Shown here in pieces: positions 3,034 through 42,909 of a stretch of DNA of 64,000 nt. Both the position numbers and the translations under genes were made by a program. Origin of the DNA: a virus. The stretch covers positions 1 to 64,000 of IMG/VR virus record IMGVR_UViG_3300013094_000025; one strand, written 5' to 3'. Position 1 is the first letter of the stretch. Each line of letters begins with the position of its first letter. Under the pieces are notes generated by a model. The model saw nothing but the letters and a program-made list of their open reading frames with translations, was not told the origin of the DNA and searched no databases.

Positions 3034-3669
3034 ATGAATAAAGATGCTCAATTAATAGCTGAAGCTTATGAAAGTATTTATAGAAATCAAGTAGATGAAA
3101 GTTTTAGAGGAGCCTTAGCTGGAGCCGCTATGGGATTAATGAGTTTATTTAGCGGTCAACAAGCTCAGAGTCAAATACAGCAGCCTCCAACAACATCTGA
3201 AGTAGTACCTCAACATCAAATTGATAATAGTACAGCAGCGGGATTAAAAGTACTCGCCGGAGCTGCTAATCAAGCTAATGCTATTCAAGCCCAATATAAT
3301 AAAGATTGGCAGGCGTCAATGGACGCAACTAAAAATGATCCTAATTGGAAAAATTATACTACTGATCAAAAGAAAACAGACGATATAACTCAAAAATATC
3401 ATGCTGATTTAACAGCATTAAGAAATAATTTAAAACAACAGTTTAATTTAGACGATAATAAATTTGAACGTCTTATTAGTTATGCTACAAATTATCAACC
3501 TGATACTTATAAAGGTTTAATGAAATTAAGCTTAGCTACCTCAACCGCTAATTCAAAAGCAGGTCTTAATCAGTGGGTGGATACAGTTGTTAATAATTCT
3601 CGAGAAGATCTTGCTAATGATATTAAACAAATTAATCAAGTAACTAAGGGTATTCAGCCTTCTCGTTAA
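3034..3669 (+). CDS. hypothetical protein, possible head-packaged protein with hydrophobic segment
   Basis: MNKDAQLIAEAYE start; GALAGAAMGLMSLF segment; TAAATA at 3021-3026. Confidence 0.7.
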   Translation: MNKDAQLIAEAYESIYRNQVDESFRGALAGAAMGLMSLFSGQQAQSQIQQPPTTSEVVPQHQIDNSTAAGLKVLAGAANQANAIQAQYNKDWQASMDATKNDPNWKNYTTDQKKTDDITQKYHADLTALRNNLKQQFNLDDNKFERLISYATNYQPDTYKGLMKLSLATSTANSKAGLNQWVDTVVNNSREDLANDIKQINQVTKGIQPSR

Positions 3670-4295
3670 GTATAAATTAATGACGGAGTTTCTTCTCCGT
3701 AAGCTCTACCGTCTTGTTGAACGTATAATTTGACCTGCTCAACTCGTAAATCAGGTGGTCCTTCTAAAGAGATAATAGCCGGACAATCTTCTCTAGGAAA
3801 GAAAACAGCATCTCCTCTTTCATAGGCAGCAACTAAAGCTCCAAAGATATTATCAATTTCCTCACGATAAACTGGATCAATATCTCTACCTTTACGTTTT
3901 TCTAAAGGAATCTCCTGTCTTAACGGTAGATAAAAAATTACATCAAACGATTTTAAAGATTCTTGAACCAAGAATTTTGTATTTACAATAAAGTCATCAG
4001 ATACTTTACCCTTAGCATTAAGCCAAATACTATAAACAATATTATCTAATACGCAACGATCAAAAATAATGTCCTTTCCATCGTTAGCACTAGCATGTTG
4101 TAACTCATCAATTAAAGCATCGAGTATAATTCGTTGACTTTCTTCATTACCTTTTTGATTAAGTTTAAGCTTCTTTTCAGAAATTATATCTCTATAAGTC
4201 TTACTTGGCTGTTTGTACATAGGCCAAGTTTCTAAAAATTTTTTAATAAAGGTACTCTTTCCGTTACACTGAGTACCAACAATAGCTATCTTCAT
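3666..4295 (-). CDS. P-loop nucleotide kinase (dNMP/thymidylate kinase-like, AAA_28/NadR type)
   Basis: MKIAIVGTQCNGKST Walker A and IIFDRCVLD motif. Start moved to ATG 4295, directly after queE. Confidence 0.8.
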   Translation of the reverse strand: MKIAIVGTQCNGKSTFIKKFLETWPMYKQPSKTYRDIISEKKLKLNQKGNEESQRIILDALIDELQHASANDGKDIIFDRCVLDNIVYSIWLNAKGKVSDDFIVNTKFLVQESLKSFDVIFYLPLRQEIPLEKRKGRDIDPVYREEIDNIFGALVAAYERGDAVFFPREDCPAIISLEGPPDLRVEQVKLYVQQDGRAYGEETPSLIYT

Positions 4296-4296
4296 A

Positions 4297-5055
4297 TTAT
4301 ACTTTAAGTGCTTTATTCCAAATGAGCAACTGTAAACGAGGACTAAAGTTAACGTGAAGAGCTTTAGCATATTCTGCTACTGCTGGCGCATTCTTAACAT
4401 GTTCTTCCCTAGATCCGCAACAGGGCATAAACCAAATACGACTTAACGGTACATTAATACCCTCTTTATCATTTACATATTTACGCCAGATCTCATCAAT
4501 ATCTTCAGAACAATTAATAACAAACTTAAACCCGGATTTATTCTTTACATGCCACTTTAATACTTCTGGCTTATAAGTCTTTTCTTCTGGATCTCCGTTT
4601 GAAGTAAGTTTAGGTGATGTAGTGAATGTAGCCCTATGAGAGCTAATCCACATGCTATCCGGAATTAATGTAGCATTAGTTTCAAAATCAATACGAGGTA
4701 CAAACTCGTATCTTACACTAAATGCTTCAATAAACTTAAGAAGTTGCTTCTCTTGAATAAGAGGCTCCCCACCTGTAAGCTTTAAGATAGCTTTATTACG
4801 AAGATGTTCAATATAGTTATTATCTTCCATCATCTTAAAGATTTCGTCAAATGTCATCTTATTCTTTACTGACCAAGAAATAAACGAATCACAACCATTA
4901 GGTGAATCCTCAGATGCAAATCCTTTACACGTTAGGTTACACATTGACATACGCATAAAGACAGAAGGTACTCCTACGTACTCTCCTTCACCTTCAATTG
5001 TATAAAATACTTTATCGTCAGATAAAAATAATGTTTCAGTATCAGTTTTAATCAT
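4297..5055 (-). CDS. queE: 7-carboxy-7-deazaguanine synthase (radical SAM)
   Basis: FYTIEGEG..G.PSVFMR, CNLTC...CDS, LTGGEPL, FETNAT, SPK and SPRLQ motifs; adjacent to queD. Confidence 0.92.
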   Translation of the reverse strand: MIKTDTETLFLSDDKVFYTIEGEGEYVGVPSVFMRMSMCNLTCKGFASEDSPNGCDSFISWSVKNKMTFDEIFKMMEDNNYIEHLRNKAILKLTGGEPLIQEKQLLKFIEAFSVRYEFVPRIDFETNATLIPDSMWISSHRATFTTSPKLTSNGDPEEKTYKPEVLKWHVKNKSGFKFVINCSEDIDEIWRKYVNDKEGINVPLSRIWFMPCCGSREEHVKNAPAVAEYAKALHVNFSPRLQLLIWNKALKV

Positions 5056-5056
5056 A

Positions 5057-5509
5057 TTATTCAAAATAAATTGCTGAGTTGTTTTCGTGTTCAAAGACTT
5101 CAACTTTATCTACCCAGCAACGACCGTTAGTTTCAATCTTAATAAAATCATTAGCTATATTATAGCACCATTCAGCAGTTTTTTCAATACCTACTGCTTC
5201 CATAATTCTAAGCTGACATCCTCGTTGATTATTAAGCTCTTGCCAAAAAGGTAACAAAGGATCATCTTGAGCTACACAAAGGGTATGATCGAACTGATCA
5301 GTAAGTTTTTTCTTAAGATCTTTAATACCTCCAAAATCTACAATCCAGTTCTTATCATCAAGCTCCTTACCGGCAAAATAAAACTTAGCCTTAAGCTGAT
5401 AACCGTGAATATACTGACAATGACTATGTACAGCTCTCCACTGACGGAAAGCACATGAACCTAGTTCAATTATTTTAGTACTCTGCCAAGTAGGTTGTAT
5501 AATATGCAT
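5057..5509 (-). CDS. queD: 6-carboxytetrahydropterin synthase
   Basis: HSHCQYIHGY, WIVDFGG, FDH and VEVFEHENNSA T-fold motifs. Confidence 0.9.
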   Translation of the reverse strand: MHIIQPTWQSTKIIELGSCAFRQWRAVHSHCQYIHGYQLKAKFYFAGKELDDKNWIVDFGGIKDLKKKLTDQFDHTLCVAQDDPLLPFWQELNNQRGCQLRIMEAVGIEKTAEWCYNIANDFIKIETNGRCWVDKVEVFEHENNSAIYFE

Positions 5510-5945: not shown

Positions 5946-7499
5946 TTAGTTCAACTGTTTACCGAGCTTATTAACAAATATATTATAGATATTTTGATCA
6001 AAGTGACCGATAGTTTCTATAACCATACGCTTACGTTTCTTTTCATCAGATATTCTAAACATGTCTCTAAATTCTGAAGCACTATTCATCATGTGCCCGT
6101 CTATATCAAAAGTTACATTACCCGGGGCGTAGATATAACCATGACCTCCCTTTTCATTAAAAGGATCCATTTCATTAATATCTTTATACGGTTGAAAGTA
6201 AGATTTATCCCCGCTTCTTGTATTTTTAAAATTAAAACGCGGGTCTGTTTTCATATCCTTCAAGCCAACTAAAAATATAACTCTATCGACATCAGGATTA
6301 TAATGTTCAAGAATTTCTACAGGTTTGTAAGGAATTCGAGTTTCAATAATTTCATTCTCAGGTATTCCACAAGCATGAATAATTTGTTTTTTTTCGTTAA
6401 AATCAAATGGATACTTACTTGGATCTTTTAGAGCATCTTTACTTGTATTACTTGCTGTAGCTATATAAAATTTAGCTGACGGAAATTCATGTTTTGCTCT
6501 TTCGTAGTAGTGGGCGTGACCTTTATGAAAGGGTTGAAAGCGCCCGGCAAATATAACTATTAAATTAAAACCGATACCTTCAGATTCAGTAAAGAATTTT
6601 GAAAATGATTTATTAATATTAAAAAGAGGTTTAACTCTAGATTCAGCTAAACGCTGGGTTACTAATTTAATAGCTCTTTCTTTATTATCACCTTTAGGTG
6701 TTCCTACCTCTCCAGACTTTACACTTACCATACCTTTAAAGATTCCTGCTACACGTTTCTTTGATCTAGGATTTTTTAATTTTGTAGCGATCTCATTTAA
6801 TAGTTCCTCAAAAGAACCATCTATATTAAAATTTTGAAGTAAACGTTCTACTAAGTTCCAGTCAGCAGAGCTCCAAACTATTTCCCTAGATAATTCTTTA
6901 AAGTTTTCTAATTTTACTTTTCGTAAAGATAAGTTAACCGAGCTTAAATTAAATTCATACTCTTCACCTTTCTGTAAAGCCGGTAAATTATTAATACCTA
7001 AACGGCGAAAAACAGCCTTAGACTCTTCTTCAAGTAAAACTGTTTTAACTAATCCTATAAGAAGACCTTGTTTTTCTGCAGGTAGGTCTAAGAAATTATT
7101 TTTAAAATTATGTTCTTCCTCTGATAAAGCTATAATGTTATCAACTTGAATGTACTGACCGGGTTCTCCTGTTATAGGGAATAAAACTGATATAAGCTCT
7201 CCGGAATTATAATATCTTCTACCAGTATATTTCGGACTTTTAAAAGGTACTATAAGACTAGTAGGTAAAGAAGTTACAGAATCAATAATTTGTTGTTTAA
7301 CTTCTTGTTTATTATCACCTTTAAAGGACACAATTATATCTAAATCTCCAAAATCTGCCTTAGCCCCTGTTTTTATACTACCAGATAAAGTAGCGTTAAT
7401 AAAGCCGGGTATTTTTTTAAGTACAAGTTTAACATAATCGTTAAATGTACTTTGTACATCTTCTCTTTTAATGCGATTTCCACCCGCTACGCCACTCAC
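5946..7499 (-). CDS. Pol-beta-fold nucleotidyltransferase fused to HxGH (cytidylyl/adenylyltransferase-like) domain
   Basis: N-terminal LSGSIKTGAKADFGDLDII and IQVDNI; C-terminal FAGRFQPFHKGH, VGLKD and SASEFR. Confidence 0.75.
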   Translation of the reverse strand: MSGVAGGNRIKREDVQSTFNDYVKLVLKKIPGFINATLSGSIKTGAKADFGDLDIIVSFKGDNKQEVKQQIIDSVTSLPTSLIVPFKSPKYTGRRYYNSGELISVLFPITGEPGQYIQVDNIIALSEEEHNFKNNFLDLPAEKQGLLIGLVKTVLLEEESKAVFRRLGINNLPALQKGEEYEFNLSSVNLSLRKVKLENFKELSREIVWSSADWNLVERLLQNFNIDGSFEELLNEIATKLKNPRSKKRVAGIFKGMVSVKSGEVGTPKGDNKERAIKLVTQRLAESRVKPLFNINKSFSKFFTESEGIGFNLIVIFAGRFQPFHKGHAHYYERAKHEFPSAKFYIATASNTSKDALKDPSKYPFDFNEKKQIIHACGIPENEIIETRIPYKPVEILEHYNPDVDRVIFLVGLKDMKTDPRFNFKNTRSGDKSYFQPYKDINEMDPFNEKGGHGYIYAPGNVTFDIDGHMMNSASEFRDMFRISDEKKRKRMVIETIGHFDQNIYNIFVNKLGKQLN

Positions 7500-8152
7500 G
7501 ATACGCGATCCTCCTTATACTTCCATATAAAACCGTATATAGATTTTCTTTTACCATTGCAGCATTCAGTTATTGATGCCCCGCTCTGTTTACCTAGTGT
7601 AGTCCCAGCGCTTCTAGCGCTTAACCACTCTCTTACTAGACGACCTGCTTTTGTAAATTGTAAAACATTTTTATTAACGGTGCATACTCTTCTACACGTA
7701 ATACTTCTTTTTTTATTTGATTCGGGTGTTTGTATTACTATACCTTTTGTTCCTTTATTCCAAGGGGTGCAACCTTTTTTAAAACTTGTTTTATTAGCTT
7801 TGCGCTGCACTGTAGAGTTTTTTTGAGATATTGATTGTCTTTTTTTTGTGTCTTCAGATAAAAAACCAGATTTATCATTAGTTTTTGTTAATCTGCAATT
7901 TAAGCCTTTATTACCCAAAACATTATAATATTCCTGCCAATACCTTTCTCGTAAATTTAAATTTTTTATATTACATTCTTCAACTATTTCAAATTTATGA
8001 TTTAAATATCCGTGTTTTATTAAAGAATTATATAGTCTACGTTGAGTTTTACATTTTAAAAATCTGTAACTTGTAAATCTTTTTTTAAAGTTTACTGTCT
8101 GTCCTATATAAACTCTACCTTTAGGATTTGTTATTTTGTAAATACCACTCAT
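7496..8152 (-). mobile_element. free-standing GIY-YIG homing endonuclease with NUMOD-type DNA-binding tail
   Basis: SGIYKITN...VYIGQT, RERYW, PWNKG and SITECCNGKRKSIYGFIWKY motifs; 4 nt overlaps with both neighbours. Confidence 0.88.
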
Positions 8153-10626: not shown

Positions 10627-11043
10627 TTATTTATTTAATACACTTTTAGGAGGTCTCCCTATACGAAGGTTTAAAATACCGTTATAATAGTCGTCTCTTA
10701 GCAAGACTTCTCTACCTATCTGTTCTTTGGCTTCTTCGTATGCTAGTTCCCACTTCGAACCGCAGGTTCTTAAAATCTCAAATCTAAAATTCTCTTTTCC
10801 TATTTTAACTATATCATTATTTAAATCAACTGAGGAACTTGTATAACTTTTCCAATCTGATTCTTTGTATTCGATTCTTTTGTTCTTCTTACCTTTTAAA
10901 GGTTTACGCTTAAACTTTGATATACATTGCTTCTTACCAATATATTTTTTTCCGTTTGTTAAGTTTGTTATCAAATAAATGAAGCCGAAAATTTCCTCCG
11001 AAATTTCAATTCCTTCGTTTAAAATCCAATGACCAGTATCCAT
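10627..11043 (-). CDS. GIY-YIG endonuclease, DenA/endonuclease II-like
   Basis: GFIYLITN..NGKKYIGKK, WKSYTSS, FEIL and YYNG motifs; short, single domain. Confidence 0.8.
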   Translation of the reverse strand: MDTGHWILNEGIEISEEIFGFIYLITNLTNGKKYIGKKQCISKFKRKPLKGKKNKRIEYKESDWKSYTSSSVDLNNDIVKIGKENFRFEILRTCGSKWELAYEEAKEQIGREVLLRDDYYNGILNLRIGRPPKSVLNK

Positions 11044-30369: not shown

Positions 30370-32912
30370 GTGTATAGAAACGCATCTTATAATCCTAAAG
30401 ACGGTACAATATATCTTCGTACTTGGTCAGAAGACGGAGATAGAATAGATACGGAAATTCCGTTCTCCCCTTTCCTTTATACAGAAAAAGATGGTGCCGA
30501 GGACGGAATATCTATTTTTAAGACTCCTTTAAGAAAGCATACTTTTCGTAATTCGTTTGAACGTAATAGATTTGTTGATGATACAAAAAACGGTCGTCTA
30601 TTTGGTAATCTACCAGTAGATCAGCAATTTCTTATTGAGATGTTTAACGCTGAAGTAGATAAAGTTGAGTTTAGTAAGCATCCGCTAAAGGTTTACTTCA
30701 TTGATATTGAGACGTATTCCCCGAATGAATTTCCTATTCCGAAGATCGCCAAAGACCCTGTAACTCTTATTACGATTCTTGATACTATTACGGGTAAGAT
30801 TCATACCTGGGGATTAAAGAACGATTATAAACCTACTTTAGATAATGTTACATATTATAAGTGTAAAGATGAGAGTGATCTATTTGAAAGATTTGTAAAT
30901 TTCTGGAAAAAAGATCCGCCAGATATTCTTACTGGATGGAATACAGAACAGTTTGACGTTCCGTATATTATTAATCGTGCGAAGAACCTTTTAGGTGAAG
31001 AATTCATTAAACAACTATCACCTGTAGGTCAAGTAACATATAGAGAAAGCTTTCAAAAGTTCGGTAAGGATATTGGTCGTTGGTATATTGCCGGGGTTAG
31101 TTGCTTAGATTACATGGAAATTTATAAGACGTATTCAAAAGGAGATAGAGAGTCTTATTCTTTGAATTATATTGCTGAATATGAACTTAACGAAGGTAAA
31201 TTAGCTATCAATGCTACTAATCTTTCTACTCTTGCTGATACTGATTGGAATAACTTTGTTGATTATAATATTCAGGACGTAGATCTCCTTCGTAAGCTTG
31301 AAGATAAACTTAACTATCTAAAGATTATTCGTTTGCTTGCGTACAAAGGATGTACAAACTTCGAAAGAGCTTTAGGAAAGGTATCGATTGTAACTGGTGC
31401 AATGTCGCTACAAGCTCGTAAACAAGGCTTTGTTATTCCTACGTTTAAGAATGAAACTACACGAGAAGCGTTAGAAGGCGGTTACGTGAGAGAGCCCGTT
31501 AGAGGCCTTAAAGACGCTATTGTAAGTTTTGACGTTAACTCCCTATACCCTAATACAATTATTACTCTGAATATCTCTTCAGAAACTAAGCTAGGTAGAA
31601 TTGTTACCGGAGATGTAGAGGTAGATAAAGAGATTGAAATTAAGCTCGTTAACGGAGGTATGTTTAAAATCGCAGTTAGTAAGCTAAAAGATTTCCTTAA
31701 GAAGGAAAACGTAGCTTTATCAAAAGCCGGTGTACTCTATTCTCAGAAGTTTAAAGGGGTTTGTCCTAATTTGATTAATAGTATTTACGACGAGCGTGTT
31801 TATGCTCGTAAGCAGATGATTGATCTTAAGAAGTCTAAAAAGAAAGATAAAGAAACTACAGCTGCTATTCAATACTTCGATACTCTACAATATACCTTAA
31901 AGATTCTTTTGAACTCTATCTACGGAACGTTTGCTAATAAGCATTCAGCGTTTATGGATATTGATAATGCTTCGTCAATTACCTTAACTGGCCAAGCTGT
32001 AGCAAAAGCGGGCGGTAACATTATTAACGAATATGCTAAGAATATCTTTAAAGTAAACGAGTCGTTGATTCTAAGCGGTGATACAGATTCTCTTTATATT
32101 ACCATTCAACCTATTTTAGATAAGCTTAATATACCCTTAACTATTGACGGTATTATTAATCCTAAGGTTCACACTATTGTTGATTCGATTGATAAACATC
32201 TCGGTGAAAAGATTCTTGATTGGGCTCGGGAAGAACTTAATTCGGCTGACCCTCGATTTGTCTTTAAAAGAGAAGCTATTGCTGACGTTGGTACCTTCTT
32301 AATGAAAAAGAGATATATTCTTCATATTTTAGATGATGAAGGTGTAGCAACAAATAAGTTTAAGTATGTAGGAGTAGAATTAGCACGATCAACGACTCCA
32401 AAACAGGTTAAAGCTATTATTCAAAAAACCATTGAGACGGCTTTCCTTACTAAAGATGTTAAAAAAACAAACGAAGTATTTAGAGAAGCTTATGACTTGT
32501 TTAGAAATCTTGATGTATCTGAAGCGTCCTTTAGAAGATCAGTAAAAGAACCAGACAAGTATTCAGCTGGAGCATCCTTAAACAAGTTTAATAAAGGTAC
32601 TCCTTGTCACGTTAAAGCGGCTCTAGCTTATAATATGCTTTTAGAAAAGATGAATTTACAAAACAAGTATGAGCTAATTCGTTCTGGTCAAAAGTAAAAT
32701 ATTTTTATGCCTCTAAAAACGTATATGGTTTAGATGCTTTAGCTTTTGTAAGTGAATTTCCAAAAGAGTTTAAAGATATTAAAATTGATTACGATAAGAT
32801 GTTCGGTAAGATTGTAACACCTCCTATTGAAGCTGTTTACGAAGCTATTGGATGGTATTTACCTATTATTGGTAAAGAAGTACAAACAGATTTATTCGAA
32901 CTCTTCTCTTGA
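30370..32912 (+). CDS. family B DNA polymerase, gp43-like; -1 frame break near 32690-32694
   Basis: DIETYS, GWN..FD.PY, YNIQDV, DVNSLYP, KILLNSIYG and GDTDS motifs. The ORF stops at 32697, but the frame starting at 32694 continues VKYFYA...IDYDKMF...DLFELFS to TGA at 32912. Confidence 0.92.
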
Positions 32913-32942: not shown

Positions 32943-33509
32943 ATGAGCGAACTACAAACACGTCTAAAAGAGGAAACATCAGATCTTCATAGTAAATCCG
33001 AACAGCATCCATTGATGCAATCATTTGTAGATGGTTCTTTTAAGAAAGAGCATCTTCTAGATCTTTTAATAAATCTTCTTCCTATCTATCAAGTTGTTGA
33101 ACAGCGCCTTCTTTCTAAAGAAATTCTAGATAATCCTGATCTTAAAAGAAGTACACAAATTCAAAAAGATATTGATAAGCTTATTTTAGATACAAGTATT
33201 ACGACACTTAAGGTTAGAGATATAACTGAAAAGTGGGTATCTTCTTCTTGGCAAAAATCCCTTTATGCTTTAAAAGCTGATCTCTACCTTCGTTGGTTAG
33301 CTGATTTTTATGGAGGCAGGATTCTTGCTAAGTCTCAAGCCCCTTATAACGAAACATATAATGCAAAAGATCCTGGAGCTGTAATTACTACAGTTAGGTA
33401 TCTCTTAACTAAAGATACACCAGATTTATATAATGATAGTATTGTACTAGAAACAAAATCTTTCTTTCACTTTCATATAAATCTATTTGAAGAAATATGG
33501 AATCACTAA
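32943..33509 (+). CDS. heme oxygenase (Ho1/HemO-like)
   Basis: LKEETSDLHSKSE proximal His helix; YLRWLADFYGGRIL distal helix. Confidence 0.82.
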   Translation: MSELQTRLKEETSDLHSKSEQHPLMQSFVDGSFKKEHLLDLLINLLPIYQVVEQRLLSKEILDNPDLKRSTQIQKDIDKLILDTSITTLKVRDITEKWVSSSWQKSLYALKADLYLRWLADFYGGRILAKSQAPYNETYNAKDPGAVITTVRYLLTKDTPDLYNDSIVLETKSFFHFHINLFEEIWNH

Positions 33510-34132
33510 GAAGATATTTTGATATTTTAACACAAGAGTTTACTAGTGCATTTGGTTATCCGGATCGTCCAGAATTAGATAACCCAAATGGTGTTTGGTA
33601 TAATAATGTATATAAGAGTCCTATTTTTAGACACATTCATTTACAATATTATAAAACAAATAAAATCGGTATTGTTCATGCTAATGTATTTCCTAGCGCA
33701 ACAGTAGATTTTCCTATATTAGGTGTAGACTTTATTGAAATAGGAAGTAAAGTTACAGGTTTCTTTTTTGATATTACACCGATTAACGCTAATCAAATTG
33801 TTCAAAAGAGTTTAATTAAATTTAAAAATGTAATTACATCTCCAGAAAGAAAACTCCCTGAATGGGCAAATTTCTTTAGTGAAAACTTTATTTGTGTAAC
33901 ACCTAATGAAGAAGAATTACTTTTACTTTTTACACACTCTTTAGCAATTATTAGAGAATATTTAGATTATTCTAAAACTTATAAAGATAGATATACTTTA
34001 AATGTTGAAAAGCAAAATGACTATTGTAAAGGTCAAAAGAAAAACGAAAAAACCTTTAAAGCTTTAGCAATTGATGTAGGGGAAGATAATGCTAAAAAAT
34101 TTATTAACAATTTTATGTTTCCTGAGCTTTAA
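33497..34132 (+). CDS. ferredoxin-dependent bilin reductase (PcyA/PcyX family)
   Basis: FRHIHL, VHANVFP, PILGVDF, FDITP, RKLPEWANFFS and QNDYCKGQKKNEKT; overlaps the heme oxygenase gene. Confidence 0.82.
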   Translation: MESLRRYFDILTQEFTSAFGYPDRPELDNPNGVWYNNVYKSPIFRHIHLQYYKTNKIGIVHANVFPSATVDFPILGVDFIEIGSKVTGFFFDITPINANQIVQKSLIKFKNVITSPERKLPEWANFFSENFICVTPNEEELLLLFTHSLAIIREYLDYSKTYKDRYTLNVEKQNDYCKGQKKNEKTFKALAIDVGEDNAKKFINNFMFPEL

Positions 34133-34334
34133 TCTCTTTAACAAACAATTGAATAATTTCAGCCCCTTTAAATTTTAAAAGACGTTCATTAGTTATATTA
34201 AAATGTTCAAGAGCTTTTTGTATACAGTCACTTTTAGTAGCTGAGGCTGTTTTCCATAGATATACCGGACCCACTTTTATTACATGGACTATTCTTTTAT
34301 GAATAAAATACTTGACATTTGTAGAATTTGACAT
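34113..34334 (-). CDS. small hypothetical protein
   Basis: Fills the gap between the bilin reductase and the DpdA-like gene; likely start MSNSTNV; TAAATA upstream on the minus strand. Confidence 0.4.
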   Translation of the reverse strand: MSNSTNVKYFIHKRIVHVIKVGPVYLWKTASATKSDCIQKALEHFNITNERLLKFKGAEIIQLFVKEIKAQET

Positions 34335-34352
34335 TATTATTGTACAATATTT

Positions 34353-35204
34353 ATGCTTATTAGCCACGAAACACCTATTAGTCTTCTAGATACCTCTAGA
34401 GGCTACAATGATTATGATTATTGTCTAGTACATTTACTACCTGAACAGTCGGAATATCTTAAATTTTATAAGGATTCCGTCGAAATGGGTAGACACGTAT
34501 TACTTGATAATAGTATTTTTGAACTTGGAGAAGCTTATGATTCAAAAGAATTTGCTTATTGGATTAATGAATTGAAACCTACTGAGTTTATTATACCTGA
34601 CGTTCTTGAAAGCACAGAAGGAACTATTGAAAGCTTTAAGAAGTTTACTAGCGAATATAGAAACCTTCCGAGTAGAAGTATCGGTGTAGTTCAAGGTAAG
34701 ACATATAAAGAAATTGTTGAATGTTATAATTTCTTGTGCAAGTATGTAACTAAGATTGCTATTTCTTTTGATTATTCGTTTTATCTTAATGAATGGCCTA
34801 CTTTAGAATCGTTTGAAAAAGAATTAGGAGTATTACCTGAATGGATAAAGGGACTCGAATTTAATAAGTGGGTAAGATATTCCTTAGGTAGAGTAGCTTT
34901 ACTTCATAGACTTAGTGCTAAGGATAACTATTTTGATTATAGAAAGGGTCATCATCTACTAGGATGTGCTACCCCTTGGGAGTTTAAACTCTATAACAAG
35001 ACGCCGTATAAGATGTGTATTGAATCAATAGATACTTCTAATCCTATTGTAGCAGCTATTCTTCATAAGAAGTATAATCCTGTTTATGGGCTACATGAAA
35101 AGTGGTCAGTAAAACTAGTTGACTATATTGGCGCTAATATAACTCGAGAACAGCTCGAATTAGCTTTTTATAATACGTCCCTATTTAGAAAATTCTGTTC
35201 ATGA
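34353..35204 (+). CDS. TGT-fold 7-deazaguanine insertion enzyme, DpdA(3)-like
   Basis: VLLDNSIFELG, IIPDV, GVVQG, HHLLG and SIDTSNP parallel TGT barrel motifs; heads a run with a formyltransferase, a kinase and queF. Confidence 0.7.
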   Translation: MLISHETPISLLDTSRGYNDYDYCLVHLLPEQSEYLKFYKDSVEMGRHVLLDNSIFELGEAYDSKEFAYWINELKPTEFIIPDVLESTEGTIESFKKFTSEYRNLPSRSIGVVQGKTYKEIVECYNFLCKYVTKIAISFDYSFYLNEWPTLESFEKELGVLPEWIKGLEFNKWVRYSLGRVALLHRLSAKDNYFDYRKGHHLLGCATPWEFKLYNKTPYKMCIESIDTSNPIVAAILHKKYNPVYGLHEKWSVKLVDYIGANITREQLELAFYNTSLFRKFCS

Positions 35205-35722
35205 GAAAATGGGTAACGTTTTTTAGTCAGACAGGTTCTGAAATTTATAAGCTTTCAAATAGACTCGGAAGAAATCCGGATATTATTGTAACAAATAGTA
35301 CAAAGATTAGGCCTGAAGTTGTTGATAAGTTTGGAGATAGTATTGTTTACGTAGGTCCAAAGCCTACAGTAGAAGATTATCTTAGGTTTATACCCGTTAA
35401 TAGTTTAGTTACTCTTCACGGATGGCTTAGAATAGTGCCTGAAGAAGTATGTGATAGGTACGAGATTTATAATCTTCATCCAGCTAACCTGTTTCATAAC
35501 CCTGAATTGAAAGGTAAAGATCCTCAAAAGATGGCCTATAAACAGAAACTAATATTTTCCGGTAATACTATTCATCGCTGTACAGCCGAATTAGATTCCG
35601 GAGAGATACTTGAACATAGTTATACTTCTATTGAAGGCTTAACGTTAGATGAAATTATTGCAACATTACATGAAGATGCTACAAATTTGTGGTATAGATT
35701 TTTAAAAAAGCATTTACAATAA
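35201..35722 (+). CDS. PurN-like formyltransferase, candidate preQ1 formyltransferase (DpdN-like)
   Basis: FFSQTGS, LHGWLRIV, YNLHP and GNTIHR..ELDSGEI motifs. Confidence 0.8.
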   Translation: MRKWVTFFSQTGSEIYKLSNRLGRNPDIIVTNSTKIRPEVVDKFGDSIVYVGPKPTVEDYLRFIPVNSLVTLHGWLRIVPEEVCDRYEIYNLHPANLFHNPELKGKDPQKMAYKQKLIFSGNTIHRCTAELDSGEILEHSYTSIEGLTLDEIIATLHEDATNLWYRFLKKHLQ

Positions 35723-35726
35723 ACGA

Positions 35727-36284
35727 ATGAAAATTGCTATTTCAGGTGCTCATAGTCAAGGTAAAACTACTCTTGTAAAGTGGTTGCAGGATATAAATGT
35801 TTTAACTGATTATAAGTTTAGAACTTCTTTAACGAGAGGAATGCAGAAAGCGGGGTATAATATTAATGAAGATGGGGATGAGGTAACTCAATTAGCTATT
35901 ATGGCTAAGCATTTTCAGCGACTTAGTGAAGTAGGGAATATAATTTATGATCGTTGTGCTTTAGATGGTTATGCCTATTCTATGTCTTTAGTAAAAGATC
36001 TTAAAGTTTTAGATATTATTAGAGATATGTTTTTATTAATGGTGGATAGATATGATATTATTTTTTATGTTGAGCCGGAGTTAGATCTTATAGAAGATGG
36101 TCAAAGGACAGTAAATAAAGATTTTTTTGATAGTGTAGTGCAATCTTTTGATTGTATTATTAAATCATATGCAATACCTGTTGTAAGGCTTAGCGGTTCT
36201 GTAGAAGAACGTGCTAGACAATTCTTTGTAGCTTTACAGGATAAAGAGGTAGAAAAACACAACAACGAATTTTACGAATTATGA
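35727..36284 (+). CDS. P-loop nucleotide kinase (dNMP kinase-like, AAA_28 type)
   Basis: MKIAISGAHSQGKTT, IIYDRCALD and LSGSVEER motifs. Confidence 0.8.
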   Translation: MKIAISGAHSQGKTTLVKWLQDINVLTDYKFRTSLTRGMQKAGYNINEDGDEVTQLAIMAKHFQRLSEVGNIIYDRCALDGYAYSMSLVKDLKVLDIIRDMFLLMVDRYDIIFYVEPELDLIEDGQRTVNKDFFDSVVQSFDCIIKSYAIPVVRLSGSVEERARQFFVALQDKEVEKHNNEFYEL

Positions 36285-37192
36285 GTACAACTAACATGAA
36301 TGACATTGCATCGAAGTCTTTAGGATCTTCGGCTTCGTATGCAGTATATACCGATACGTTTGATCCTACGCTTCTTAACCCGATGCCTCGATCCCTAGCT
36401 CGAGATGATTGGGGTATTAAAGCTGGAAGCTTTGTAGGATTTGATACATGGCATTGTCATGAAGCTACATTCCTTCTTAATAGTGGAGTGCCCGTAGCAG
36501 GTACACTAAAGTATGTTTATTCTTGTGACTCTGAGTTTATGGTAGAGTCAAAGTCTGCTAAGCTTTATTGTAACTCGTTTGATATGTGCAAGATGGGTGA
36601 GAATTATTCTCAGGCAATTGCTAATTATGAGAATCAAATTAAAACAGATCTCGAAAATATTCTTAAGACACCAGTATCAGTTAAGTTTTTCCGTTCAGGA
36701 TCTGATAATAATGCTGTAGACTCTGTTCCTGATTATGTTGATCTTACAGATAAGATTCATTTTAGCACTGAGATTACTGATTATGCTTCTAAGGAGGAGC
36801 ATTTAAAGTTTTATTCACTTGAAGATGGTAACGAAATTGTAGAATGTAAATATTTTACTAATGCGTTGAGGTCTCGTTGCCGTCATACAAAGCAGAAAGA
36901 TACAGGTACGGCTTATATTCATATTATTACAAAGGGATGTGAAGTAAATCCGGTATCACTCTTTAAGCAAATTGTATCGTTACGAGAAGTTAACGAGTTC
37001 CATGAATTCTGTGCTGAAAAGCTTTATACAAGTATTAAGAGTCATCCAGCAGTAATTGATTGTGCTGTAACTCTTCTTTATGCTCGTCGAGGATCGCTTG
37101 ATATTAACCCGACAAGGGCTAGTCGAGCTGATCTTCTTCCATCTGTTCTTATTAATTCAAATGTCTATACAAAAAAGGCAATGGGTCAATAA
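36281..37192 (+). CDS. queF: NADPH-dependent preQ0 reductase, bimodular type
   Basis: GFDTW..HE, VESKSAKLY.NSF, SRC..T.Q.D.G, EFHEFC and YARRGSLDINP motifs. Confidence 0.88.
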   Translation: MSTTNMNDIASKSLGSSASYAVYTDTFDPTLLNPMPRSLARDDWGIKAGSFVGFDTWHCHEATFLLNSGVPVAGTLKYVYSCDSEFMVESKSAKLYCNSFDMCKMGENYSQAIANYENQIKTDLENILKTPVSVKFFRSGSDNNAVDSVPDYVDLTDKIHFSTEITDYASKEEHLKFYSLEDGNEIVECKYFTNALRSRCRHTKQKDTGTAYIHIITKGCEVNPVSLFKQIVSLREVNEFHEFCAEKLYTSIKSHPAVIDCAVTLLYARRGSLDINPTRASRADLLPSVLINSNVYTKKAMGQ

Positions 37193-37239: not shown

Positions 37240-37623
37240 ATGAGCGAAACAACAAACAAAATCACAATCTTCTTTGACTCTGTAGGACGTACAATCCTCG
37301 GAGAACGAGTTGACGAAGCAACAACAGATACAGTTCTTTCTATTAAGAACCCAGCAGTTGTCCACATTATGCCTAACCAGCAGACAGGACAGCTTACTCT
37401 TCAGATCCTTCCTCTCTTCTTCAGAGAGTTCTTGGCTGATAAGACCGAAGCTACAACTTGGAAGTATAACCGTTCACTCATTACTGAGTGCAATGATATT
37501 GCTTTTGACTTTAAGCTTCAGGCTCAGTACCAGCAGATCTTCAATCCTAGTCCAATTATCACTCCAGGAGGTGTCACACCAGCCGATAAGACTGACGTAG
37601 TCCGTCTTTTTGACGAAGAATAA
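37240..37623 (+). CDS. hypothetical protein
   Basis: 127 aa ORF with codon usage like the highly expressed core genes; upstream of uvsX. Confidence 0.7.
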   Translation: MSETTNKITIFFDSVGRTILGERVDEATTDTVLSIKNPAVVHIMPNQQTGQLTLQILPLFFREFLADKTEATTWKYNRSLITECNDIAFDFKLQAQYQQIFNPSPIITPGGVTPADKTDVVRLFDEE

Positions 37624-41159: not shown

Positions 41160-42050
41160 ATGACATTAACTAAAAACCTATTCGCTGAAATTACAGCATC
41201 CCTATCTAATAAGAACGAAAATATCTATAAGGATATTCTGAAGTTTGAGGCTAACAAGACTTATCTCGTTCGTCTTGTACCTAATATTAACGAGCCAAAG
41301 AAGTCTATTTACAGCTATAAGCACCACAGCTGGAAGAGTCACTCTAACGGTCAGTTTATTACCTCACTCTGTCCTAGCACTTATGGGGAGAGCTGCCCGA
41401 TTGATTCCTACGTTATGAAGACGTACAATACAGGTACTGATGAAGAGAAGAAGAAGCTTGGAGAAATCTCTCGTAAGGAGAGTTGGATGGTTAACGCTTA
41501 CGTTATTTCCGATCCTACTAACCCTGAGAATGAAGGTAAGGTTAAGGTCATTCGTTACGGTAAGGAGCTTGCTAAGATTATTGACAGTGCAATTACTGGC
41601 GATGATGCAGCTGAGTTCGGAGCAGCTAAGGTATTTGACGTTGCTAATGGTAGCACTCTTCGTATTAAGTGCGAACCTCGCACAGGTAATACTGGTAATC
41701 GTATGTCAGTAACTTATTCATCTTCTAAGTTCTTGTCTCCTTCTAAGCTCGATATCCCTGAAGAGAAGGTTGTAAGTGTACATAAGGATATTCATGATCT
41801 TGCGAAGTTTAACAAGACCAAGACTACAACTGAGCTTCAGCAGTCCCTTGATCAGCACTTCCATTGCATTGAAGATGTAAATACAACAGAAGAGGTTGAT
41901 GAAGATACTCTTCCAACACCAGTAGCTAAGATCCCTACTAAGGATGCAGCTCTTGAGTCAATCTTTGAAGGTGTTACTGAGGCTCCTAAGCCTACACCTG
42001 CTGTAGATGATACAGATGCAAAACTTAAAGAACTACTTGCTGGACTCTAA
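41160..42050 (+). CDS. single-stranded DNA-binding protein, gp32-like
   Basis: LVRLVP, CPSTYGESCPI, NAYVISDPTNPENEGKVK..RYGK and an acidic tail. Confidence 0.9.
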   Translation: MTLTKNLFAEITASLSNKNENIYKDILKFEANKTYLVRLVPNINEPKKSIYSYKHHSWKSHSNGQFITSLCPSTYGESCPIDSYVMKTYNTGTDEEKKKLGEISRKESWMVNAYVISDPTNPENEGKVKVIRYGKELAKIIDSAITGDDAAEFGAAKVFDVANGSTLRIKCEPRTGNTGNRMSVTYSSSKFLSPSKLDIPEEKVVSVHKDIHDLAKFNKTKTTTELQQSLDQHFHCIEDVNTTEEVDEDTLPTPVAKIPTKDAALESIFEGVTEAPKPTPAVDDTDAKLKELLAGL

Positions 42051-42075
42051 AATATTAGCCACTATACTCAAATTT

Positions 42076-42909
42076 ATGCCTAGAATCAAAACTAACGCCG
42101 ATATCCCCGATATTCAGAATACTGTTGACGGGTTCCCTAAGAAGTACATCCCTAAGGTTGGTACCCGTGATGCAACGCTTCCCGTTAAGATCATCCGTAA
42201 GGATGGCACTGTTAACGAAGGCTCAGGAAAGTTTAGTATGTATACTGACCTTACATCTGAAAATAAAGGTACGAACATGAGCCGTTATCGTATCCTTATT
42301 GAAGAGGTCGTAGCAAAGGATGGTTACTTTGTTCACGAAGTTATTAAGGATCTTCTTCATGAGTGTAAGTCACGACTTAAGTCAGATAATGCTTATGTTA
42401 AGATTAAGTTTGACTACTTCCTTAAACGTCAAGCTCCTGTATCAAAGATTGAGTCTCATATGGATTACCGAGCTAATATGGAAGGTAAGCTTGTTGATGG
42501 TAAGGAGCGTTTGTACCTAACTGTACACGTCATGTATGCTTCACTCTGTCCTTGCTCTAAGGAGATCAGTGATTACGGAGCTCATAATCAACGATCAGTA
42601 GCTGACGTTACCGTTGAGCTTGATGAGTCAAAGGGTATTATGTGGATTGAAGAGATTATTGATATTGTAGAGAAGTGCTCTTCAGCTCCGATTATTAACG
42701 CTCTTAAGCGTGTTGACGAAGCTTATCAAACTGAGCTTATGTACGAGAATCCAGTCTTTGTTGAGGATATGGTTCGTAAGGTAGCTGTTGAACTTGATAA
42801 GGAGCTTGATAACCGTATTAAGGACTATTCAGTTGTCGTTAATCACTTTGAGTCAATTCATACAGCAGTAGCCGTTGCGGTTATTAATGCTGGTAGGGAG
42901 CTAAAGTAA
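42076..42909 (+). CDS. folE2: GTP cyclohydrolase IB
   Basis: PDIQ, KGTNMSR, SLCPCSKEIS..GAHNQRS, KRVDE, NPVFVED and ESIH motifs. Confidence 0.92.
   Translation: MPRIKTNADIPDIQNTVDGFPKKYIPKVGTRDATLPVKIIRKDGTVNEGSGKFSMYTDLTSENKGTNMSRYRILIEEVVAKDGYFVHEVIKDLLHECKSRLKSDNAYVKIKFDYFLKRQAPVSKIESHMDYRANMEGKLVDGKERLYLTVHVMYASLCPCSKEISDYGAHNQRSVADVTVELDESKGIMWIEEIIDIVEKCSSAPIINALKRVDEAYQTELMYENPVFVEDMVRKVAVELDKELDNRIKDYSVVVNHFESIHTAVAVAVINAGRELK

Follow-up and report, generated by a model that had tools for sequence, protein, structure and literature searches.

A DpdA3-DpdN-kinase-QueF cassette in an uncultured T4-like phage and a possible free-nucleotide route to 7-deazaguanine DNA

Introduction

How does a phage with a DpdA3 protein come to carry a 7-deazaguanine in place of every guanine of its DNA: is the base exchanged in the finished polymer, or is the modified nucleotide made first and then polymerised? 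The question is raised by four adjacent genes, dpdA3, dpdN, kin1 and queF, located in the first 64 kb (64,000 nucleotides, hereafter named the window) of the IMG/VR viral contig IMGVR_UViG_3300013094_000025, which is 97,937 bp long and was rated 46% complete. The phage is uncultured and lake metagenomes are its sole source; the cassette itself was seen repeatedly in lake-water and freshwater metagenomes. We conclude with high confidence that the cassette is a DpdA3/DpdN/QueF module of the fdPreQ1 (formylated preQ1) type, orthologous to that of phage immuto_2-6A. We further propose, with a probability of roughly 0.55, that DpdA3 is the first enzyme of the tRNA-guanine transglycosylase (TGT) superfamily to take free deoxyguanine nucleotides or nucleosides as substrates and that, together with a kinase and often a hydrolase, it supplies the polymerase with 7-deazaguanine deoxynucleoside triphosphates (dNTPs).

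Results

Identity of the four-gene cassette

The initial annotation had described four coupled open reading frames (ORFs) at 34353-37192, encoding a TGT-fold protein, a PurN-like formyltransferase, a P-loop kinase and QueF. These positions proved exact; all four genes lie on the + strand and are translationally coupled, two junctions consisting of an ATGA overlap and one of a 4-nt gap. The assignments were borne out by fold, Pfam and PHROG matches. In immuto_2-6A the order is DpdA3, a small ORF, DpdN, a protein labelled 'thymidylate kinase' and QueF, and the same order and orientation were found here. The DNA of immuto_2-6A was fully fdPreQ1 by liquid chromatography-mass spectrometry (LC-MS), dG being undetectable (PMC10516641). 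The identity of the cassette is thus based on its orthology to a characterised fdPreQ1 phage, on the shared gene order and on the catalytic residues, which are intact in all four proteins. No match to the cassette was obtained by blastn against 50,697 phage records.

DpdA3 is a minimal transglycosylase barrel

The 283-aa DpdA3 protein matched no Pfam or NCBIfam model, PF01702 included, and sequence and profile searches against solved structures gave nothing significant; a wider DpdA3 profile ranked the bacterial DpdA structure 7ui4 first among solved structures, at E 0.2 only. The structural model obtained from a 26-sequence alignment (mean predicted local distance difference test, pLDDT, 93.8) is a (beta/alpha)8 TIM barrel, and every one of its top fold matches among solved structures was a tRNA/DNA guanine transglycosylase (Foldseek E about 4e-6). 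VIA alignments gave Z values of 16.8 for ArcTGT, 16.5 for the bacterial DpdA 7ui4 (a DNA preQ0 insertase) and 16.2 for the Zymomonas mobilis TGT, covering about 226-231 residues at a root-mean-square deviation of about 3 A. Among predicted viral structures, a protein of Cellulophaga phage phiST was matched at Foldseek E 2e-16.

By tblastn, DpdA3 is 42% identical to the 'DNA guanine transglycosylase' of immuto_2-6A (E 6e-55) and 43% identical to gp056 of Campylobacter phage CP220 (E about 2e-42 to 8e-44 for the CP220 group), with a coverage of 92-99% for these matches; the family profile matched phiST CGPG_00065 at E 5e-25. CGPG_00065, together with the Campylobacter-phage and immuto proteins, founded the DpdA3 subfamily (PMC10516641). 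The orthology to the immuto protein and the common gene order therefore place the TGT-fold protein, suggested to be DpdA-like in the initial annotation, in the DpdA family, subfamily DpdA3. It is co-encoded with 7-deazaguanine genes, queF in the operon and queD, queE and folE2 within the window. The family is large (4,815 matches among 90% clusters and 3,471 among 50% clusters); among the 50,697 phage records its holders were a Flavobacterium and a Campylobacter group, plus one distant Weizmannia phage.

Residues D52, D83, D227, L203, G115 and H201 were invariant in 67 diverse members, E210 was nearly so, and F56 was invariant in the 26-sequence alignment. L203 and D227 fall on Leu236 and Asp256 of DpdA 7ui4 in a profile alignment that, at E 0.2, is indicative only; Asp256 is the nucleophile among the residues to which roles were given in bacterial DpdA (PMC10164549). 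Inspection of the motifs suggests that D52-x3-F56 may correspond to Asp95...Phe99 of DpdA, and D83 to Asp130. Local, low-probability hhalign alignments of DpdA3 profiles with E. coli TGT, used for motif correspondence and not as proof, paired GVVQG with GIIQG and also matched the HLLG..P motif. The CxCxxC...H zinc site of TGT was not found, and we consider it absent because no Cys/His cluster is conserved in the 26- or the 67-sequence alignment. At 283 aa against 413 aa, DpdA3 is about 130 residues shorter than bacterial DpdA and has no room for the insertions Ins1 and Ins8, which make up the DNA-binding surface of the latter (PMC10164549). The isoelectric point (median pI 5.5) and the net charge were discarded as discriminators, since E. 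coli TGT is acidic too. Natural DpdA3-DpdN fusion proteins are known (P0161, P0177; 447 aa). Two other homologues are extended, P0138 (475 aa) by NUMOD3 at the C-terminus and P0141 (586 aa) by 317 N-terminal residues to which no assignment was given.

DpdN and QueF

The 173-aa DpdN protein matched PF00551 (Formyl_trans_N) and is 49% identical to DpdN of immuto_2-6A (YP_010114479.1; E 8e-52, over 173/175 residues). The hhalign comparison with E. coli PurN (probability 97%) placed N91, H93 and D132 on PurN N106, H108 and D144, and this Asn-His-Asp triad was invariant in 17 homologues. An ordinary glycinamide ribonucleotide (GAR) transformylase was ruled out: the score on the PurN equivalog TIGR00639 was 33.9 bits (cut-off 150.1), and the C-terminal part is shortened, the alignment stopping at residue 170 of the 212 of PurN. 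Hence, the PurN-like protein can be named DpdN, as the initial annotation had suggested.

QueF scored above the cut-offs of both Pfam domains (QueF_N, E 1.9e-22; QueF, E 7.6e-8) and below that of TIGR03138 (E 4.8e-50, 170.7 against 293). The motif ESKSAKLY spans residues 89-96, and the candidate catalytic residue is Cys200.

Kin1 is a kinase-fold protein linked to DpdA3

The best Pfam match of the 185-aa Kin1 protein was PF13521 (AAA_28, NadR-kinase type; E 7.8e-13), and it belongs to PHROG 2107, 'thymidylate kinase' (E 1.3e-21); other profile matches were a deoxynucleoside kinase (dNK), the ribosylnicotinamide-kinase (RNK) domain of NadR and thymidylate kinases (TMK). The model (pLDDT 90) is equally near to TMK, dNK and NadR (TM 0.64-0.69). 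A thymidylate kinase was rejected on three grounds, namely 16.8 bits on the dTMP-kinase equivalog TIGR00041 (cut-off 83), the AAA_28 best match and a fold no closer to TMK than to the others, and the 'thymidylate kinase' label of the Kin1 homologues is probably wrong. G12-K13-T14 of the Walker A motif, D75-R76 of the DR-type substrate motif and R127 of the LID were invariant in 21 homologues, and R37, N47, Q55, D80, Y84 and D124, at substrate or LID positions of kinases, are further family-invariant residues. Kin1 is 34% identical to its immuto homologue and 35% to that of CP220.

Linkage was analysed in the 80 IMG/VR loci nearest to this DpdA3 (46-83% identity), five of which were too truncated to judge. 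Kin1 was located 3' of DpdA3 in 75/75 evaluable loci, separated from the stop codon of DpdA3 by a median of 526 nt. Where at least 3 kb of downstream DNA was available, the architectures were DpdA3-DpdN-Kin1-QueF (36 loci), DpdA3-Kin1-QueF (14) and DpdA3-Kin1 (3). Since Kin1 stays where DpdN or QueF is missing, DpdA3-Kin1 is the constant core. Every phage with a strong Kin1 homologue in the phage records (E 2e-18 or better) encodes DpdA3 as well. Weak Kin1-like genes of Streptomyces phages (22-26% identity), which have no DpdA context, were set aside as ordinary members of the superfamily. The prediction of a DpdA3-Kin1 complex scored 0.01, which weighs neither way.

Accessory genes recur around this core. 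CP220 has the order HD-domain/P-loop fusion, DpdA3, Kin1; immuto carries a PRA-PH/MazG-type pyrophosphohydrolase two genes 5' of DpdA3; and two further loci, L071 and L072, have Kin1 and QueF separated by a MazG-like ORF. No Kin1 orthologue was found in phiST, where the order is a MazG/dUTPase-like gene, DpdL, the AAA_18-type P-loop protein CGPG_00066 and DpdA3; CGPG_00066 was given no assignment in the 2023 paper (PMC10516641). In contigs resembling phiST the order is QueD, QueE, FolE, a phosphoribosyltransferase (PRTase), a dCTP-deaminase/dUTPase-like protein, a fusion of a DpdL-like (QueD-paralogue) N-terminal part with AAA_18, and DpdA3. We infer that the phiST-type P-loop kinase is a non-orthologous replacement of Kin1, unrelated families recurring for both accessory functions.

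Twenty-two DpdA3 loci were located in phage contigs binned with metagenome-assembled genomes (MAGs), and Kin1 was adjacent in 7 of them. In two gut-type loci, L106 and L108, DpdA3 directly precedes a family-B DNA polymerase gene with no kinase nearby; a helicase-like gene lies just 5' of DpdA3 in L106, and the polymerase of L108 carries an intein. A small type-I PRTase was found near DpdA3 modules of many lineages, this window not included (L001 and L085, see Table 1; also L041, L058, L060, L073, L076, L077, L079, L098 and L104), and it could salvage the guanine freed by base exchange.

Precursor genes and setting of the cassette

The initial annotation had also placed queD and queE at 4297-5509 and folE2 near 42076. 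All three genes were corroborated by Pfam or NCBIfam models, folE2 lying at 42007-42909 (Table 1). FolE2, the enzyme of the first step to preQ0, scored 232 bits on NF010200, above the cut-off of 215. Several QueE equivalog models matched the queE-like product (best E 4.5e-14), none reaching its cut-off.

Kin2, a second P-loop kinase whose gene overlaps the end of queE, belongs to PHROG 2107 (E 7.7e-17) and is 28% identical to Kin1 (E 2e-12). It is kept at 79% identity in the contig of the closest relative (L092) and was not seen near DpdA3 in any other locus, so that it was ruled out as a general partner of DpdA3, being present only in this phage and that relative. The 517-aa protein encoded beside queD combines a cytidylyltransferase-like nucleotidyltransferase domain with an N-terminus weakly resembling a DNA-polymerase-beta palm, and may be tied to nucleotide or NAD metabolism. 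Two genes resembling GIY-YIG homing endonucleases, one of SegE type, are found in the stretch that separates the queD/queE block from a helicase gene. For seven unnamed ORFs in the vicinity of queD/queE and folE2, neither PHROGs nor Pfam returned a match.

The cassette is surrounded by T4-type replication genes, namely those of the gp43 family-B polymerase, a UvsX-like recombinase, a gp41-like helicase and gp32. The polymerase is about 33% identical at best to that of any cultured T4-like phage. A heme oxygenase gene (PF01126) and one for a ferredoxin-dependent bilin reductase (PF05996) adjoin the cassette on its 5' side. Identity of the polymerase to cyanophage gp43 is low, at about 33%, and lake metagenomes yield the DNA repeatedly; the host may be other than a marine picocyanobacterium. 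Within the 220-nt gap 5' of dpdA3, a sigma-70-like match (11/12) is a possible operon promoter by its consensus; the evidence is weak because the region, with 16 sites of this kind, is poorer in them than its shuffles (24.5). On the 3' side, a 127-aa ORF with no family match is kept in nearly all T4-like relatives, including loci with the arrangement DpdA3-Kin1-ORF where QueF is absent. It may be a backbone gene or a module part that has escaped recognition; nothing usable on it came from the protein atlas.

Table 1. Positions of the cassette, of other features of the window and of selected features at related loci (designated L).
Feature	Location	Position	Strand	Remarks
dpdA3	window	34353-35204	+	283 aa, minimal TGT-fold 7-deazaguanine transglycosylase
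dpdN	window	35201-35722	+	173 aa, PurN-superfamily formyltransferase
kin1	window	35727-36284	+	185 aa, P-loop nucleoside/nucleotide kinase
queF	window	36281-37192	+	303 aa, bimodular NADPH-dependent preQ0 reductase
Sigma-70-like promoter match	window	34312-34340	+	TTGACA-17-TATTAT
kin2	window	3666-4370	-	second paralogous P-loop kinase, AAA_28 E 9.8e-11
queE-like	window	4297-5103	-	radical-SAM 7-carboxy-7-deazaguanine synthase, Fer4_12 E 5.8e-6
queD	window	5057-5509	-	6-carboxytetrahydropterin synthase, PF01242 E 1.4e-17, TIGR03367 E 1.1e-10
517-aa protein	window	5946-7499	-	
GIY-YIG gene	window	7496-8152	-	
GIY-YIG gene	window	10627-11043	-	
gp43 polymerase	window	30370-32697		family B
Heme oxygenase and bilin reductase	window	32943-34132	+	
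127-aa ORF	window	37240-37623	+	
folE2	window	42007-42909	+	GTP cyclohydrolase IB, PF02649 E 3.9e-71
AAA_18 P-loop protein of phiST	L085	46381-46860	-	beside DpdA3
DpdL-like-AAA_18 fusion	L087	5082-5996		
DpdL-like-AAA_18 fusion	L088	3489-4457		
PRTase	L001	6834-7229		small, type I
PRTase	L085	28218-28646	-	small, type I
DpdA3 and family-B polymerase	L106	3008-8628		
DpdA3 and family-B polymerase	L108	4986-8332		

Discussion

The pathway that we infer for this phage, including what DpdA3 takes as substrate and Kin1 as acceptor, the DpdN step and the end-product, would run as follows. FolE2, QueD and QueE would convert GTP into 7-carboxy-7-deazaguanine (CDG), a QueC activity, which may come from the missing half of the genome or from the host, would yield preQ0, and QueF would reduce preQ0 to preQ1, the aminomethyl group of which would be formylated by DpdN; fdPreQ1 as end-product thus presumes a QueC activity. 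By Asp-mediated transglycosylation, DpdA3 would exchange guanine for the 7-deazaguanine, and in the preferred reading its acceptor would be free dGMP or dG. Kin1 would then phosphorylate the product, a general NDP kinase would form the triphosphate (Kin2 could be the source of a second phosphorylation step), and the phage polymerase would incorporate it. Such a route would be pre-replicative, analogous to the synthesis of hydroxymethyl-dCTP in T4 or of dZTP in S-2L.

We prefer the free-nucleotide route because of the Kin1 linkage, the recurrent kinases and hydrolases, the minimal barrel, and three published observations. Complete G replacement was found in all tested DpdA3 phages, and the DNA-acting DpdA1, DpdA2, DpdA4 and bDpdA reach no more than 30% (PMC10516641); DpdA3 expressed in E. 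coli gave no DNA modification (PMC10516641); and a modified-dGTP route had earlier been proposed for Campylobacter phages (PMC6884629). The initial annotation had held that a kinase inside the operon argues for synthesis at the nucleotide level. This claim stands in so far as a kinase is a near-constant neighbour of DpdA3, with non-orthologous kinases and (pyro)phosphatase-type genes at other loci, but it contradicts the published model and does not cover the loci that have no adjacent kinase.

Several points weigh against the free-nucleotide route. The one paper that deals with DpdA3 places insertion after replication (PMC10516641), and nowhere in its text is a kinase mentioned. The membership of Kin1 in the TMK/dNK/NadR-RNK families fits a nucleoside or a monophosphate acceptor alike. 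All characterised enzymes of the TGT superfamily act, to our knowledge, on polynucleotides. Linked genes of related phages share their ancestry, so the counts of loci are non-independent events. Among the MAG-binned loci, Kin1 was not found within about 5 kb of DpdA3 in L097, L106, L107 and L108, and L103 has DpdA3-DpdN and no Kin1 over 4.4 kb downstream; two of these loci have the order helicase, DpdA3, family-B polymerase. Kin1 homologues were present elsewhere in 3 of the 4 MAG bins checked, once probably on the same 93-kb contig. No MazG, HD, PRA-PH or NUDIX protein, the candidates for dGTP removal, was found in the 46%-complete contig.

QueC is a further point of this kind. Its absence from the window, already stated in the initial annotation, was confirmed, and the search (PF06508, six frames) extended over the whole contig gave no match either. 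Of the FolE-to-QueF pathway, all genes but QueC were seen in this incomplete contig alongside those of DpdA3 and DpdN. None was found in 13 fragmentary relatives, the T4-like ones being fragments 14-53% complete; it is present in one complete relative and in one that is 64% complete. Because both this contig and its T4-like relatives are incomplete, the absence is uninformative.

In the first alternative, DpdA3 would be a highly efficient DNA transglycosylase that works after replication and replaces each G by preQ1 or formyl-preQ1, DpdN would act on the base or on DNA, and Kin1 would be a general nucleotide-supply kinase that merely travels along with genes of replication and nucleotide metabolism. 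DpdA3 has kept the full TGT/DpdA catalytic set, its known relatives are all polymer-acting, and Cui 2023 argued for this model from the presence of a DpdA in every modified phage (PMC10516641); the location of the cassette among the replication genes gp43, uvsX, gp41 and gp32, and of DpdA3 between helicase and family-B polymerase with no kinase nearby in some loci, would also be in keeping with it. This explanation gives no reason, however, for the strict coupling of DpdA3 and Kin1 (75/75 loci), for the retention of Kin1 where DpdN or QueF is absent, or for the presence, next to DpdA3 in immuto, CP220 and phiST-type loci, of non-orthologous kinases and of genes of the dNTP-(pyro)phosphatase type. 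DpdA3 has neither the zinc site nor the DNA-binding insertions, it failed to modify DNA in E. coli, and a context-independent exchange of 100% of G would be unprecedented among DpdA enzymes. Post-replicative exchange is thus a possible explanation that we consider rather unlikely.

A second alternative sees in Kin1 a partner of DpdA3 whose ATPase activity drives the transglycosylation of DNA, that is, a functional analogue of DpdB, the ATPase that bacterial DpdA requires for preQ0 insertion into DNA (PMC10164549). A P-loop NTPase adjoining DpdA3 in each of the 75 evaluable loci would agree with this. Kin1 is, however, a single-domain protein of 185 aa with a TMK/dNK/NadR-kinase fold and no DNA-binding domain, its kinase substrate and LID residues are conserved beyond Walker A, and DpdB is ParB-like rather than kinase-like; the neighbouring MazG, HD and dUTPase-like genes would also be left unaccounted for. 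We regard this role as improbable.

Supply of queuosine precursors or tRNA modification by auxiliary metabolic genes, as phage Q-pathway genes were formerly interpreted (PMC6884629) and as a phage known from its genes alone might allow, is very unlikely, since in three cultured phage groups an orthologous cassette accompanies fully substituted DNA, neither a formyltransferase nor a kinase belongs to the synthesis of queuosine in tRNA, and the tRNA-binding parts of TGT are missing from DpdA3.

With this cassette, the known range of the fdPreQ1 guanine-replacement system comes to include a deep-branching T4-like lineage encountered repeatedly in lake metagenomes. The system itself was already known; the phiST-type non-orthologous kinase, the DpdL-like fusion and the counter-examples from MAG bins are additions to it. 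The window and its relatives bear, in a testable form, on the way in which all guanines are replaced in DpdA3 phages. Should DpdA3 act on free nucleotides, the TGT fold would gain a new enzyme activity, possibly usable as an enzymatic tool for making 7-substituted 7-deaza-dGTPs, and the view that 7-deazaguanines always enter DNA after replication would need revision.

Comparison with known systems

The T4 pre-replicative set comprises the dCTPase gp56, the dCMP hydroxymethylase gp42 and the dNMP kinase gp1, and that of S-2L comprises DatZ, MazZ and PurZ. What marks these pathways is the combination of a dNTP hydrolase, a base-modifying enzyme and a dedicated kinase, and a comparable triad, by analogy, appears around DpdA3 in several lineages. 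The differences are that there is no homology, that the DpdA3 step would be a base exchange rather than a reaction on the base itself, and that a search of this contig for enzymes of dGTP removal was negative.

Beyond the shared gene order, immuto_2-6A and the present phage both co-encode QueD and QueE. They differ in the polymerase, which is the family-B gp43 in this T4-like freshwater myovirus and of family A in immuto, and in the first precursor enzyme, FolE2 here and a type-I FolE in immuto. In contrast to immuto, no QueC, PRTase or PRA-PH-type hydrolase was recovered in the 98 kb, whereas the second paralogous kinase beside queE belongs to this phage and not to immuto; the phage studied here is known from genes alone.

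CP220, a Campylobacter Firehammervirus, resembles the window in the adjacent DpdA3 and Kin1, and its G is completely replaced. It lacks QueF and DpdN, has dADG as end-product and carries the HD/P-loop fusion directly 5' of DpdA3. The likeness to phiST consists of a distant DpdA3, QueD, QueE, FolE, a flanking P-loop protein and a dNTP pyrophosphatase-type gene; the AAA_18 P-loop protein is not an orthologue of Kin1, QueF and DpdN are absent, and the end-product is dDG. The DNA of CP220 was reported as 100% dADG and that of phiST as 100% dDG (PMC10516641).

With bacterial DpdA, TGT and ArcTGT, finally, DpdA3 shares the TIM barrel (Z 16-17), the Asp acid/base, the Asp nucleophile and the base-stacking residues. 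It differs from bacterial DpdA and TGT in the missing PF01702 match, zinc site and nucleic-acid-binding insertions, and its partner is a small kinase, whereas that of bacterial DpdA is the ParB-like ATPase DpdB.

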